64,000 bases of DNA, taken from the NCBI GenBank assembly GCA_000002445.1, contig CP000070.1, forward strand, positions 1 to 64,000, in the 5' to 3' direction. Source of the DNA: Trypanosoma brucei (lineage: Eukaryota). The notes under the pieces were generated by a model. That model worked only from the letters and a program-made list of their open reading frames with translations, was not told the origin of the DNA and did not search any database. The position numbers were made by a program, and so were the translations under genes. Shown in pieces: positions 1 to 64,000 of the stretch; the first letter of the stretch is position 1, and every line of letters begins with the position of its first letter.

Positions 1-1
1 G

Positions 2-442
2 AATTCTCTAATAAATCTCGAGGCAACGGCGGCAGAAGAGGCAATAAAGTTGAGCGGCGCCGAAGCAAAGCTGAATGGACCGCTGCCGGCAGGGCTGCCC
101 ACCAAAGTGCCACCCATAACTACAGTAACATGCGAGGTGCACAATAAGTCCAAAACAAAGTGCTTAGAAGCGCAGTGCAAATGGGGAGGCAAAAAGGATG
201 ATGACGGCCCATGCCAAGCTAGCGACAAACAAGTTTCAGAGCAGACAAAGCAAGGTGGAAGAGATACAACAACAGGTGGAGATGTCAAGAAAGAGGATAA
301 ATGTACTGGTAAAGACGAGAAAACATGCGGCGGCACTCAGGGCTGCAAATGGGAGGGAACAGAATGCAAAGATTTCAGTCTTCTTGTAAATAACAAAATT
401 TCTATTATTGTTTCTGTTTCTGTGAGTTTGGTAGCATTTTAG
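2..442 (+). CDS. VSG C-terminal domain plus GPI-anchor signal. The CDS is partial because the reading frame is already open at the window start.
   Basis: Frame 2 is open from nt 2 with no stops. The sequence is Cys-rich with CKWGG and CKWEG motifs. It ends in a hydrophobic GPI signal, SLLVNNKISIIVSVSVSLVAF, before a stop. A VSG 3'UTR 16-mer variant lies about 55 nt downstream. Confidence 0.8.
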   Translation, partial: NSLINLEATAAEEAIKLSGAEAKLNGPLPAGLPTKVPPITTVTCEVHNKSKTKCLEAQCKWGGKKDDDGPCQASDKQVSEQTKQGGRDTTTGGDVKKEDKCTGKDEKTCGGTQGCKWEGTECKDFSLLVNNKISIIVSVSVSLVAF

Positions 443-495
443 CATATTGAGGATATTTGCTCAATTTTATGAAAAATTTCTATTTTAAGATAATT

Positions 496-511
496 TGATA
501 TGTTTTAATAC
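496..511 (+). promoter_or_regulatory. VSG 3'UTR 16-mer variant (TGATATGTTTTAATAC).
   Basis: Two mismatches to the conserved VSG 3'UTR 16-mer TGATATATTTTAACAC, which has been implicated in stage-specific mRNA stability. Confidence 0.55.
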
Positions 512-644
512 TTCTTAGTGAAAATGTACAAATTGTTTAAAATCTGAACTTTGGTGTGAAACTGCCTTATGGGTAATAATTGAAGTTTAATATGATATGA
601 AAATTTTATTTTTTGCTTATTTTACTTTTTTGTTAATTTTATGG

Positions 645-725
645 ATAATTGTTATGTTAATAGCAATAACTATAATGATAGGAGAGTGTTGTGAGTGTGT
701 GTATATACAAATATTATAAAATGAG
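645..725 (+). repeat. Single 70-bp repeat unit of the kind found upstream of VSG cassettes.
   Basis: The sequence aatagcaataactataatgataggagagtgttgtgagtgtgtgtatatacaaatattataaaatgag matches the TRR triplet run followed by the GAGAGTGTTGTGAGTGTGTGTATATAC core of the T. brucei 70-bp repeat. Confidence 0.75.
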
Positions 726-60374: not shown

Positions 60375-60956
60375 CTACAGTTTTGAGATGGCCGCACGTC
60401 GGGTTTTGTTTGGTGATTTCGTGTCGTTGAAAACTTTAGTGTGGTCGGCTCTGGCGCATAAAACTGTTTTCCCATTTTGTTCCTGTCGCACCTCGGCGCT
60501 AAGGGAGCAAATCCGGCGACCCGACCGCAGGAGACGACTCACCAAAATAAAAGGACGCTCTGAAAGAAGGGGTCGCACGAAATCAATCGTTAGAGAAACG
60601 GAGACATGTTTCATTTTCACTAGAAGAGCCAAATGTGCAGATGTTAGTGCATCAATAAGGAATGACAAGACCCCTTGATCCACGTACACGTCGCCTGTTT
60701 TATTGAGGGAATCATGTGATGCGAGCGTTTTACTCGCTTTCATGGGCCACTCAACAACTGATCCGTTTAAATCAGATGCATCGCCTCCAAGAGACGTGCT
60801 GGCAGCCATTGCGCCGCTACCAACAAATGTCATACGTACATCCTTCACATTCAAACTTGCATGGCGGAGCGCGACATCTCTCGTGCATTGCGTAGTTGCA
60901 GCGAAGAAGTCCTCGATTCGGCGCTCAGTACTTGGGCTTATTTCGTTGTAGTCCAT
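60375..60956 (-). CDS. Thioesterase-superfamily (hotdog fold, PaaI/4HBT-like) protein.
   Basis: The core ...GDVYVDQGVLSFLIDALTSAHLALLV...VSVSLTIDFVRP...GRRICSLSAEVRQEQNGKTVLCARADHTKV fits the hotdog thioesterase pattern. The start is taken at MDYNEIS, at 60956. Confidence 0.55.
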   Translation of the reverse strand: MDYNEISPSTERRIEDFFAATTQCTRDVALRHASLNVKDVRMTFVGSGAMAASTSLGGDASDLNGSVVEWPMKASKTLASHDSLNKTGDVYVDQGVLSFLIDALTSAHLALLVKMKHVSVSLTIDFVRPLLSERPFILVSRLLRSGRRICSLSAEVRQEQNGKTVLCARADHTKVFNDTKSPNKTRRAAISKL

Positions 60957-61526
60957 GCTTATTTCTTTTTGTTTTTTCTTCCTAATGATTCTTTTTTCCC
61001 TTCCCCTCCCCCTAGTGGCCTTAACCAAACAAGTGCAAATACACGTATTTTAAAACCATGCGATAGGGGAAACTCGGTGAGGTGTTCGCATCTGGAGCAT
61101 CAATCTTCAGTAGTCACTGGGGTGTACGTGTGAGGTGCGTTTACAGCCTTCCCGTAGCGACATGCAAATAAATATCAACAACTACTCGTGACGCAAGCGC
61201 CATGAAAAAAAAAAAACGCGTCTTGGTGCCATCCGCAAATAATTGTTTGTAATGGAAGTTTGCCAGCACGCGAGACGCCTTTTTATTTCGCCACGCGGCT
61301 GCAACCCCTAACCCCTCCCCCCCAAAAAAAAATAATAATAATAAATACGGCCCAACGCGCCGTCGCGCCCCCGCGATCGCGCTCATTTGAGCTCGAAGGG
61401 ATAATATGACGAAGAACCGCCTCCCACTCCCCGCCTTCGTTTGCGAATGTGTTTTGAATTGACAAGGATAAAAATTGAACAAAATAAAAAAAAAAACGAC
61501 CACAAGTACAAAGCATAGATCGAATG

Positions 61527-62510
61527 CTAGGAAGTTTGCAGTGTCTCCAATCGCCTAGCAAACCCAGCTATAAGGGAGGTTGTGCCACTCAAATCATCAT
61601 AAAAAACATTATGACCTGCTTTCGGTAATATGTGTTCTTCCGTTGTTGCAATACTACAGCCTTTCCATAGGCCCTGGAGGCGTTTGTGCCTTCCCACTTC
61701 AGACTCGGCCCCTAATATGGAAAGAATAGGAACATCAATTTCCCCCCGTGCACAAACCCTCGCATCAGCGTCAGTTAAGAAAATGGATCCGTTGCGTAAG
61801 TTTTCATCCAATACGGGAAGGTTGCACCTCCACGATACATCAGGTGGCGCACCACCGCTTTTACGAATAATTTGTAAGTTAGTTGTGAGAAACCCCTGCA
61901 GCCTTCTGTCCCGAATGCCACACCGATTGAATTCCTCATGAGCACTGCGCATGTCCGTTATTGCCGAGAGACGCACCCTCCTCATATAATCAATATATTC
62001 ATGTAACAAATTACGAAGTGACGACGGGAATAAGGATTTAGTGAGGGGCGGCATGTCCAGGCTGACAAAACCGGCAACGGGCGCCCGGTGCACATCTCCA
62101 TGGCGATGATCCAAAAGGTATTTTGCCCACGTCAAGGTACCCATGCTGTGACCAACGGCTATAATCCTTGGTGTCATTAAATTACCCTCAGCCCGCTTCC
62201 CCGCCACAACATATCCGTGCCAATGCAGCCATTCACGCAAATCAGCCACCATATCTTCAAGTGTGTGAGTTGAGGTGTGCGGTGATCTGCCATGATTTCG
62301 ACTGTCCACAACGATGGCCTCCACCGAAGCCGCCATGCGTTCCGTTGCTAAACATTCATGCAGCCGTCGGGCAAGCGACATAAGCGAACCTCCATGACTC
62401 AGAAATCCGTGCAAAAAGATGAAATGCACGGGGTTTTCCGGTGAGGAAACCCTCGCCGTATTTGATACCCTCGTGCTGTGGAGTTTAACGGGCGCCCTCA
62501 CATTCCCCAT
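61527..62510 (-). CDS. Alpha/beta-hydrolase fold protein (lipase or esterase type).
   Basis: A GHSMG nucleophile-elbow motif, IIAVGHSMGTLTW. A plausible start at MGNVRAP. The six-frame ORF extends to 62615. Confidence 0.65.
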   Translation of the reverse strand: MGNVRAPVKLHSTRVSNTARVSSPENPVHFIFLHGFLSHGGSLMSLARRLHECLATERMAASVEAIVVDSRNHGRSPHTSTHTLEDMVADLREWLHWHGYVVAGKRAEGNLMTPRIIAVGHSMGTLTWAKYLLDHRHGDVHRAPVAGFVSLDMPPLTKSLFPSSLRNLLHEYIDYMRRVRLSAITDMRSAHEEFNRCGIRDRRLQGFLTTNLQIIRKSGGAPPDVSWRCNLPVLDENLRNGSIFLTDADARVCARGEIDVPILSILGAESEVGRHKRLQGLWKGCSIATTEEHILPKAGHNVFYDDLSGTTSLIAGFARRLETLQTS

Positions 62511-62822
62511 GCGGTCAGAGCTCCTGAAACTATATGCCGGTTTCTTTTCCCTCCCCCCAACGGCGCGAGACTGAGAAAATCGTAAAAAGAAAAGGATATG
62601 AGTAAAGGAAGGCATCCTTTAGACCGTAGCCAAGCAGCTCCCAATTGATCATGTTTCCCGAAACAAGCAAGCAAACAATATTGTTCCCATTTCTTCGTTA
62701 TTAATGCACCAGACATCTCGACTCGAGTGAAAAATATGACGATAAATTGATTGTTGCGGAAACGAGTGGCCCTTGTACCGCTGCCCAGTCAGGAGTGCCG
62801 TTCAAATATCGGAAAAGTCAAT

Positions 62823-63542
62823 CTATTGCATGCAAGCACAGGCTTCCTGTAAGAAAATACCGTTTGTTTTGTATTCAACACTGCTGTTGCATTCACATCC
62901 TCCTTTTGGTGATGCACCGGACGAACGATGTCGCGAAAAGACAACCTTCCCAACGGCTATTTGATATATCAAAAAAGTTTCAGTTTTCCATAGTTCTGTA
63001 CCAAACCAATGAAAACACAGAGATGTCTGCAGAGTTTTCCCAAATAAACTTTCTTCACACTCCAGCACGGGGAACCGCTCGGTGACTTTGCTAAGGGGAT
63101 GTGGCGTGACAAAATCACAAAACAACTTCCTTCTTGTTTGTATTGTGTGTGTGTGGTTTCTGTTCGTACCAGAAAATGCACACGCTAATACCGACGTTAT
63201 CTTCCGATACGCGTGATTGGTTTCGAAGTTTATACAGTCAGTCGAAGTGGTTAGAACCTTAGTTGGAGTGGTGAAACGTAAATAAGCTCCTCTGTCACTT
63301 GCAAAAGTGGTGGTCCTCCTTTTTCCCTTGGCGGCGAAAACTGTCCTCCAAAAACCCGGCGACATCACTTCATGATGCTGCACAGTAACCGATTCAAAAG
63401 TTTGTAGTGCCCAACTTGTCACGGTTTCGTTTCGATTAGTAATAGTGATGGGATATTTTAACCATACAAGTGAAATAACTGCTGGAGCTTTCCAGTGCCG
63501 CAACACCAAAAACTGTGTACAAGGAACTGAGGCCAAGGACAT
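62823..63542 (-). CDS. Hypothetical protein.
   Basis: A 239-aa ORF in the same orientation as the neighbouring - strand genes. No motif is recognised. Confidence 0.3.
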   Translation of the reverse strand: MSLASVPCTQFLVLRHWKAPAVISLVWLKYPITITNRNETVTSWALQTFESVTVQHHEVMSPGFWRTVFAAKGKRRTTTFASDRGAYLRFTTPTKVLTTSTDCINFETNHAYRKITSVLACAFSGTNRNHTHTIQTRRKLFCDFVTPHPLSKVTERFPVLECEESLFGKTLQTSLCFHWFGTELWKTETFLIYQIAVGKVVFSRHRSSGASPKGGCECNSSVEYKTNGIFLQEACACMQ

Positions 63543-64000
63543 TATGGGGAAGCATAGAGGAGAATTGTTTCGATCCTCTCTTACAACAAATGTGGCAGGC
63601 AGTACATAACACCGATAGCATGGAAAACAAAACCATAGGCGTCACTCTATTTTCTCACCTTACCCCCTCCCCCCAATAACAGATGCGGCGTCAAGTGGTG
63701 AAAGTTGTCTTGCACAAACAACACAATATCGAGTAATTTGTAGCGCCTTTTTTTTTCTTGTTTAACTGTTAGTACGAGGAGAACATCATGATTGTTATTC
63801 CATTTTTTTCCTCGCGCGGCGTTGAAGGTGCTGAAAGTAAAAGTATGAAAACATTATCGAAATGAGTATAACCGCCAGGCATAGGAGCAACATCCCAAAC
63901 ACCTCAAAAATCACTACATGAGACTCCTTTTCCTTTGAAGCGCGCTCATTTCCATTAAATCCCGCATCGGTTACATTTGGAAATGAGGCCCCAACCAACA

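Follow-up and report, generated by a model that had tools for sequence, protein, structure and literature searches.

To which part of a trypanosome genome does a stretch of Trypanosoma brucei DNA belong when it opens with variant surface glycoprotein (VSG) sequences and closes with housekeeping genes, and how is the passage between the two organized? We find that this stretch (all 64,000 nucleotides that were analyzed, referred to here as the window) is almost certainly the opening ~64 kb of chromosome 7 as published for T. brucei brucei TREU927, or starts very near that point, and that it leads out of a silent subtelomeric VSG array and into the conserved core of the chromosome. The region is already known, as the left end of chromosome 7 in the published TREU927 sequence, and the analysis turned up nothing new in it. 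It is part of a reference genome that appeared in 2005, and its genes for CDP-diacylglycerol (CDP-DAG) synthase, proline dehydrogenase, thimet oligopeptidase A, ESAG9 and the VSG-related protein Tb927.7.180 have already been studied individually. The value of the analysis is as a check that a kinetoplastid chromosome end can be recognized from raw sequence and placed on the right chromosome; the window makes no open question testable.

The placement is carried by exact protein identities. With the start of each open reading frame (ORF) set to the ATG that fits the annotated protein, an exact look-up in a collection of 15 billion proteins showed that 21 proteins predicted from the window are residue-for-residue identical to the TREU927 GenBank entries AAZ12082-AAZ12100 (XP_845641-XP_845659), and these accessions ascend consecutively in window order. 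Exact matches carry the NCBI names Tb927.7.180, Tb927.7.330 and Tb927.7.350, at the places expected from the numbering. Published pairs of ID and product link Tb927.7.170 to ESAG9 (PMC3957582), Tb927.7.180 to a VSG-related protein of 437 aa (PMC4619645), Tb927.7.190 to thimet oligopeptidase A (PMC2443814), Tb927.7.210 to proline dehydrogenase (PMC6027508) and Tb927.7.220 to CDP-DAG synthase (PMC4114554); IDs that have neither an NCBI name nor a paper were assigned by accession order and are marked below as inferred, and Tb927.7.170 was likewise assigned to its gene by accession order. Set against Tb927.7.170-.350 of TREU927 chromosome 7, the window has exactly the same proteins, with the same order, orientation and products, and no difference was detected at the protein level. 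The orientation of the window is that of the chromosome 7 gene numbering. With Tb927.7.170 already reached at 23.5 kb and the IDs increasing along the + strand, the window should begin at or near the start of the chromosome record. Positions 1-6 read GAATTC, an EcoRI site, which fits a record beginning at the end of a cloned restriction fragment. An earlier note on this DNA had proposed the left end of chromosome 7 from the letters alone; that proposal is borne out by the exact proteins, the Tb927.7.x names and the published IDs, and the strain can now be refined to TREU927.

The same synteny would be seen if the window came from another member of the T. brucei group (Lister 427, T. b. gambiense, T. 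b. rhodesiense, T. evansi or T. equiperdum). Several proteins do not discriminate, proline dehydrogenase, CDP-DAG synthase, cyclophilin and RPF2 being identical in at least two Trypanozoon genomes, and the collection searched may under-represent the proteins of the Lister 427 genome. However, seven of the proteins (AAZ12082, AAZ12083, AAZ12084, AAZ12085, AAZ12090, AAZ12096 and AAZ12097) match TREU927 alone, with the T. b. gambiense DAL972, T. equiperdum OVI, T. b. equiperdum and Lister 427 VSGnome versions appearing as separate cluster members. Every protein looked up from its annotated start matched a TREU927 entry, and the thimet oligopeptidase (OpdA) of another T. b. brucei isolate differs from the window at 5 of 743 residues. 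At the nucleotide level, contig CZPT02000613.1 of T. equiperdum OVI has the same gene order from the thimet oligopeptidase to the leucine-rich repeat protein LRRP, with an identity over 33286-51907 of 98.2-99.3% and not 100%. This contig, which ends at window position 33286, has one S28e copy where the window has two (either collapsed in assembly or truly single), and its alignment breaks exactly at the (TTA)n microsatellite that precedes the proline dehydrogenase gene, indicating that the microsatellite differs in length between the two genomes. An origin outside TREU927 is on this evidence scarcely credible.

Certain points weigh against the assignment to the start of TREU927 chromosome 7 and the biology attached to it. 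The placement of base 1 is drawn from the gene numbering and the starting EcoRI site only, and the strain identity rests on proteins, with nothing direct on the non-coding 40% of the window or on the VSG array. The polypyrimidine signal described below is also modest.

By ORF listing and Pfam scans the window divides into seven parts with three changes of gene orientation, at ~13.2-18.5 kb, 28.4-34.2 kb (divergent) and 55.6-57.55 kb (convergent). Its G+C content is ~44%, with clear blocks of strand-asymmetric composition, and across its whole length a tRNA scan was negative and Rfam gave no family at its gathering score. The subtelomere-to-core layout described in the earlier note is recovered, since the VSG array, retroelement, strand-switch region and housekeeping polycistrons are each present. 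So too are the two unidirectional housekeeping blocks (+ strand genes at 34206-55605, - strand genes at 57553-63542) and the predicted gene order, in which Peptidase_M3, Pro_dh and CTP_transf_1 proteins are followed by two identical 103-codon S28e ORFs. The description needs amendment: a strand-switch region exists, but there are three orientation changes and not a single one, and the elements of the VSG-to-core order are in place, but a - strand block of surface-protein genes between the retroelement and the divergent switch had been omitted.

With only 13 kb of array and no terminal telomere in the window, the VSG array might instead be chromosome-internal, or an assembly join of unrelated clones, so that there would be no real subtelomere-to-core junction. 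An internal telomere-like tract at 12272-12312 could in principle mark such a join, and TREU927 subtelomeres are stated in general terms to be incompletely assembled (PMC4858185). Yet the gene numbering begins here, the position of Tb927.7.170 placing IDs.10-.160 within the first 23 kb, and the succession of array, retroelement and ESAG9/VSG-related (VR) block is the usual gradient from species-specific to conserved sequence. The telomere-like tract itself is ~40 bp long, degenerate and flanked on both sides by VSG-type sequence in the same orientation. We consider it very unlikely that the junction is an artefact or an internal array, and describe the window below as a passage from subtelomere to core.

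The array occupies the + strand, on which all its features lie, from 1 to 13.2 kb, and consists of four full-length VSG pseudogenes, two C-terminal fragments, three 70-bp repeat units and four 16-mer elements. A family of repeats corresponding to the GPI-signal tail marks the VSG 3' ends, of which the window has six. Pfam places VSG_B at 2144-3630, 7823-8812 and 10072-11190, an A-type Trypan_glycop domain split across 5029-6209, and Trypan_glycop_C at 2-439, 8854-9150, 11194-11730 and 12947-13129. The earlier count of four VSG cassettes thus holds for the complete ones, to which the two C-terminal fragments have to be added, and all four are pseudogenes: three are frameshifted, and the fourth is in one frame with two in-frame stops.

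The window start cuts a VSG C-terminal domain fragment with a GPI-signal tail (1-442; Trypan_glycop_C E 2.1e-22; GPI-tail family D1). Behind it lie a 16-mer-like element with 2 mismatches, found by motif scan (496-511), and a single-copy 70-bp repeat unit (663-727; 96% over 48 nt; nhmmer E 3.6e-8), with 1.55 kb separating it from the VSG that follows. This VSG is a B-type pseudogene with a C-terminal domain (2279-3797; VSG_B and Trypan_glycop_C, GPI-tail copy at 3729-3795). Its reading frame shifts near 2600-2650, with positions 3-106 (in 2144-2647) and 110-351 (in 2596-3630) of the VSG_B profile in different frames, and there is a premature stop at 3631-3633. A TAA/TAG-rich tract (4067-4109) precedes a partial 70-bp unit (4091-4143; nhmmer E 0.009; blastn 29 nt at 97%). 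The A-type pseudogene that follows (5047-6627; Trypan_glycop) comprises three reading-frame segments, with profile positions 3-171, 176-253 and 267-367 in 5029-5592, 5596-5856 and 5829-6209, and a Trypan_glycop_C tail in 6460-6711. The third pseudogene (7639-9150) is B-type, with its signal-peptide segment in another frame (VSG_B E 3.9e-43 at 7823-8812; Trypan_glycop_C E 1.5e-11 at 8854-9150); downstream of it are a 16-mer with 1 mismatch (9255-9270) and a 70-bp unit (9426-9490; 90% over 50 nt; nhmmer E 3.2e-6) that precedes the next VSG by 0.65 kb. The last complete VSG, a B-type pseudogene in a single frame (10135-11733; VSG_B profile 6-99 and 103-326; Trypan_glycop_C E 4.3e-26), has its in-frame stops at 10471-10473 and 11191-11193 and a perfect 16-mer on its 3' side (11788-11803). 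The array ends with a VSG C-terminal tail fragment (12947-13102; Trypan_glycop_C E 1e-7, profile 78-104) and, 3' of this, a 16-mer-like element with 2 mismatches (13140-13155).

The 16-mer, TGATATATTTTAACAC, is the published conserved element of the VSG 3' untranslated region (3'UTR) (PMC9044945). At up to 2 mismatches it matches the + strand four times against 0.10 expected, and 0 of 100 shuffles reached four. The 70-bp units were found with the published Lister 427 BES1 unit as query (S1 dataset of PMC4858185); all three are on the + strand in the first 10 kb, and each precedes a different complete cassette (three of the four) by 0.65-1.55 kb. The reported presence of 70-bp repeats and 16-mers in the first 14 kb is accordingly correct. 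The locus has the properties of silent subtelomeric VSG arrays, namely head-to-tail cassettes on one strand, A- or B-type N-terminal plus C-terminal domains, a majority of pseudogenes, a single 70-bp unit 0.65-1.55 kb upstream and a 16-mer in the 3' flank. It departs from them in that the BES1-unit search found no recognizable 70-bp unit upstream of the cassette at 7639-9150, in that no 16-mer with up to 2 mismatches accompanies the cassettes that end at 3797 and 6627, and in that a T-rich tract and a short telomere-like repeat come after one of the cassettes.

What can be read from the letters here is anatomy, and the roles of donor and 16-mer are taken from established trypanosome biology. 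On that basis the array VSGs would be silent in place and would serve as donors, of whole or mosaic segments, for gene conversion into the active telomeric expression site, with the 70-bp repeat as upstream homology and the conserved C-terminal/3'UTR end as downstream homology. The 70-bp repeats act in VSG donor selection (PMC4858185), and the 16-mer would be expected to act in the mRNA, stabilizing VSG transcripts (PMC9044945).

Between the A-type pseudogene and its downstream neighbor, where a 70-bp repeat would be expected, the + strand has two overlapping stop-free stretches of 100 and 122 codons (6665-7239). They have no Pfam family (two sub-threshold matches at chance level only), no PDB relative and no homologue in the protein collection. 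A relationship to the glycosyltransferase at 54.5 kb was considered and rejected, there being no similarity. Because on a rough estimate chance alone would give about one stop-free run of 122 codons in DNA of this base composition, we take this segment as probably not a gene; it may represent chance ORFs in purine-rich DNA or an unrecognized pseudogene.

The sole cassette with a perfect 16-mer (10135-11733) is also the one followed directly by a T-rich tract of ~460 nt, which ends in a short degenerate block of telomere repeats (together 11804-12312, + strand; 57.5% T; Tandem Repeats Finder (TRF) row 12265-12296). The block, at 12272-12312, reads CTTAGGG..CGGGTTAGGGTTAGGGTTGGGGTTA, and TTAGGGTTAGG is found also at 11917-11927. 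For the tandem TTAGGGTTAGGG within the block, we estimate roughly 0.01 chance occurrences of this particular 12-mer in the window. The tract and the TTAGGG block might be the fossil of a former chromosome end, left when a telomeric VSG was copied or fused into the array, a reading that we offer tentatively and regard as somewhat doubtful. In such an event a telomeric VSG, its 'barren' downstream region and the first telomere repeats would have moved into the array; if true, the fossil end would record traffic from telomere to array besides that from array to telomere. A literature search on internal telomere repeats in T. brucei VSG arrays returned nothing relevant among the papers it covered. 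The tract, which bears on the route by which telomeric VSG cassettes enter the silent archive, is the sole loose thread of the window.

Between the + strand VSG array and the - strand ESAG9/VR block, the + strand at 15147-17783 carries a degenerate, 5'-truncated remnant of a non-long terminal repeat (non-LTR) element of the ingi/L1Tc clade, DIRE-like in character, with an RNase H region and a Cys/His zinc-finger-like region. It is interrupted by at least four in-frame stops and one frameshift and is closed by an A13 run on the same strand (17771-17783). The stop-free segment 15510-15932 contains the motif GHCGVEKNE, which we take to be RNase H-like. In an exhaustive HMMER search this segment matched 96 representative proteins at E ≤ 0.001 (best 2.2e-26), the best being T. 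theileri 'Tbingi protein' entries and the next T. vivax, T. congolense and Novymonas proteins; the long matches carry Exo_endo_phos, RVT_1, RNase_H and zf-C2H2 in that order. By tblastn the homologues align at 15147-16268 only, through their RNase H and zinc-finger regions and the part just after the reverse transcriptase (post-RT) (for example residues 1027-1243 of 1703), and a T. theileri 'Tbingi protein' shows 37% identity along 292 residues (E 1e-53). The translation has Cys/His motifs (CTQCGF...H, CCTQCHHTH) that give no Pfam zf-C2H2 match, and the homologues align up to 16268.

Instead of a retroelement, the stretch could be what is left of a host gene whose product had an RNase H-like fold, or the similarity could be due to chance; several negative results would fit this. 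In the three + frames of 14401-17700 Pfam detected none of RVT_1, Exo_endo_phos, RNase_H and zf-C2H2, and a word-indexed protein search with a 493-residue pseudo-translation found no homologue. No tblastn match lies upstream of 15147, leaving no RT or endonuclease part detectable, and neither a target-site duplication, for which no dedicated search was made, nor the Pr77 (HDV-like ribozyme) 5' hallmark was identified, the latter in an Rfam scan that included no specific Pr77 model and in which no family attained its gathering threshold. These results have to be set against the strength of the HMMER and tblastn matches, the order of domains in the long matches, which is the APE, RT, RNase H and C2H2 order of ingi/L1Tc elements, the alignment of the window with exactly their post-RT portions, and the same-strand A13 run at the end of the region. 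A source other than a retroelement is in our judgment most improbable.

The ingi-clade sequence is classed as a remnant and not an element since it is 5'-truncated with RT and endonuclease undetected, and it could not move. The retroelement of the earlier note is therefore confirmed in its 3' part, and its RT/endonuclease half is not found. Degenerate ingi/L1Tc-related remnants go by the name DIRE (PMC1874656). In common with these, the remnant has RNase H and zinc-finger homology to ingi-clade proteins, many stops, a frameshift, a 3' A-run and a position where gene orientation changes; it differs in comprising the 3' ~2.6 kb only, RT, endonuclease and the Pr77 hallmark not being seen. As its closest named relative, the T. 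theileri 'Tbingi protein', is only 37-42% identical, it is not a recent copy of a T. brucei ingi. Retroelement remnants are known to accumulate at strand-switch regions (PMC4748587).

The segment from 18.5 to 28.4 kb is a - strand block of T. brucei-specific surface-protein genes. It contains the ESAG9-type gene Tb927.7.170 (23503-24285, 260 aa), an exact match to AAZ12082.1, 'expression site-associated gene (ESAG) protein, putative', with the ID given by accession order and the name ESAG9 by PMC3957582, and the VR gene Tb927.7.180 (27072-28385, 437 aa; exact AAZ12083.1, TREU927 only; VSG_B E 1.1e-64; PMC4619645). Just past the retroelement remnant, and facing opposite to the array, are degenerate, colinear VSG_B pseudogene fragments (18515-19293, - strand), matching profile positions 136-211 (19293-19015, E 3.8e-4) and 260-333 (18784-18515, E 1.3e-6). 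The idea that they are a recent duplicate of Tb927.7.180 was discarded, BLASTP detecting no similarity.

The passage into the core is formed by a divergent strand-switch region of 5.8 kb with no recognizable gene (28386-34205), from which Tb927.7.180 (- strand, to 28385) and Tb927.7.190 (+ strand, from 34206) point outward. The G+T fraction of the + strand is 0.42-0.51 on its left and 0.53-0.65 on its right, flipping at ~31.5-32 kb and reaching 0.65 at 33.5-34 kb. GC and AT skew, together with the gene orientations, also speaks for the switch regions. Of the 20 stop-free stretches of at least 85 codons in the divergent region, the 10 longest matched no Pfam family. Near the middle of this region is a (CA)17 microsatellite (31054-31087). 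At the other end of the + strand core block is a convergent strand-switch region of ~1.9 kb (55606-57552), bounded by Tb927.7.300 (+ strand, ending at 55605) and Tb927.7.310 (- strand, ending at 57553) and having no tRNA gene or Rfam match.

From established knowledge, RNA polymerase II would start in both directions within the divergent region and terminate in the convergent one. Trans-splicing, at an AG that follows a polypyrimidine tract, would release each mRNA from its polycistron and would be coupled to polyadenylation of the gene before it; polycistronic transcription and trans-splicing in trypanosomes are described in PMC2443814 and PMC4285177. Of the 12 + strand genes, 11 have sense-strand pyrimidine runs of 10-20 nt in the 500 nt before them, and in 11 of 12 the sense run exceeds the antisense run in length. 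In the - strand block this signal is weaker, and the mean longest run in a random 500-nt window is 11. Pyrimidine runs of this length are common throughout the window, so that the observation is consistent with trans-splicing but weak; the upstream polypyrimidine tracts claimed earlier agree with the data without being statistically strong.

The + strand core block (34206-55605) has 12 genes, Tb927.7.190-.300. The first encodes thimet oligopeptidase A (Tb927.7.190, 34206-36263, annotated as 685 aa; exact AAZ12084.1, TREU927 only; Peptidase_M3 E 1.5e-113; PMC2443814). A longer form of 743 aa, starting at 34032, is likewise supported by the ORF; 743 aa is the length annotated in gambiense, rhodesiense and another brucei isolate as against 685 in TREU927. 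This M3 peptidase is among the genes listed by a study on prokaryote-derived lateral gene transfer in trypanosomatids (PMC4711719). The statement that nothing here is prokaryotic applies to the genome context but perhaps not to the deep ancestry of Tb927.7.190. It is followed by a conserved hypothetical gene (inferred Tb927.7.200, 36651-38267, 538 aa; exact AAZ12085.1, TREU927 only), with an intergenic (TG)13.5 microsatellite downstream (38945-38971), and by the genes for proline dehydrogenase (Tb927.7.210, 39714-41384; exact AAZ12086.1; Pro_dh E 2.9e-53; PMC6027508) and CDP-DAG synthase (Tb927.7.220, 41928-43148; exact AAZ12087.1; CTP_transf_1 E 2.5e-55; PMC4114554). A perfect (TTA)17.7 microsatellite (39609-39661) lies 53 bp upstream of the proline dehydrogenase ATG.

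Two tandem identical S28e genes of 103 codons, annotated '40S ribosomal protein S33', come next (43393-43704 and 43919-44230; AAZ12088.1 and AAZ12089.1). For these the exact look-up used a shorter 97-aa version (from 43411), which fell in the 103-aa cluster listed under both accessions. The duplication (43314-44264) is 425 bp at 99.8% identity with a period of 526 bp, taking in the coding sequence and ~80 bp upstream. Beyond it are genes for a leucine-rich repeat protein (inferred Tb927.7.250, 45233-46987, 584 aa; exact AAZ12090.1, TREU927 only; LRR_6), a conserved hypothetical protein (inferred Tb927.7.260, 47186-47710, 174 aa; exact AAZ12091.1), the Brix-domain protein Ribosome production factor 2 (inferred Tb927.7.270, 47961-49073, 370 aa; exact AAZ12092.1; Brix E 1.5e-32) and a cyclophilin-type peptidyl-prolyl isomerase (inferred Tb927.7.280, 49637-50314, 225 aa; exact AAZ12093.1; Pro_isomerase E 1.2e-44). 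The leucine-rich repeat protein at 45233 is annotated as 584 aa here and 646 aa in other genomes, the region of the start difference being 45206-45232. The LRRP gene (inferred Tb927.7.290, 50638-52251, 537 aa; exact AAZ12094.1; LRR families) contains 213-bp tandem repeats detected by TRF (50782-51284), 80-86% identical, that correspond to leucine-rich modules of 71 residues. The block closes with a UDP-Gal/UDP-GlcNAc-dependent glycosyltransferase gene (inferred Tb927.7.300, 54502-55605, 367 aa; exact AAZ12095.1).

Beyond the convergent region, the start of the - strand core block carries Tb927.7.310-.350 at 57553-63542. In window order these encode a GST-N/glutaredoxin-like protein (inferred Tb927.7.310, 57553-58440, 295 aa in TREU927; exact AAZ12096.1, TREU927 only; GST_N_3, Glutaredoxin), an RRM-domain protein (inferred Tb927.7.320, 59534-60076, 180 aa; exact AAZ12097.1, TREU927 only; RRM_1 E 1.2e-17), a thioesterase-like protein (Tb927.7.330, 60375-60956, 193 aa; exact AAZ12098.1, 'hypothetical protein Tb927.7.330'; 4HBT_3, 4HBT), an alpha/beta hydrolase (inferred Tb927.7.340, 61527-62615, 362 aa; exact AAZ12099.1; Abhydrolase_1) and a T. 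brucei-specific hypothetical protein (Tb927.7.350, 62823-63542, 239 aa; exact AAZ12100.1, 'hypothetical protein Tb927.7.350'). For Tb927.7.310 a 342-aa form is possible from 58581, and 342 aa is the length annotated in other genomes.

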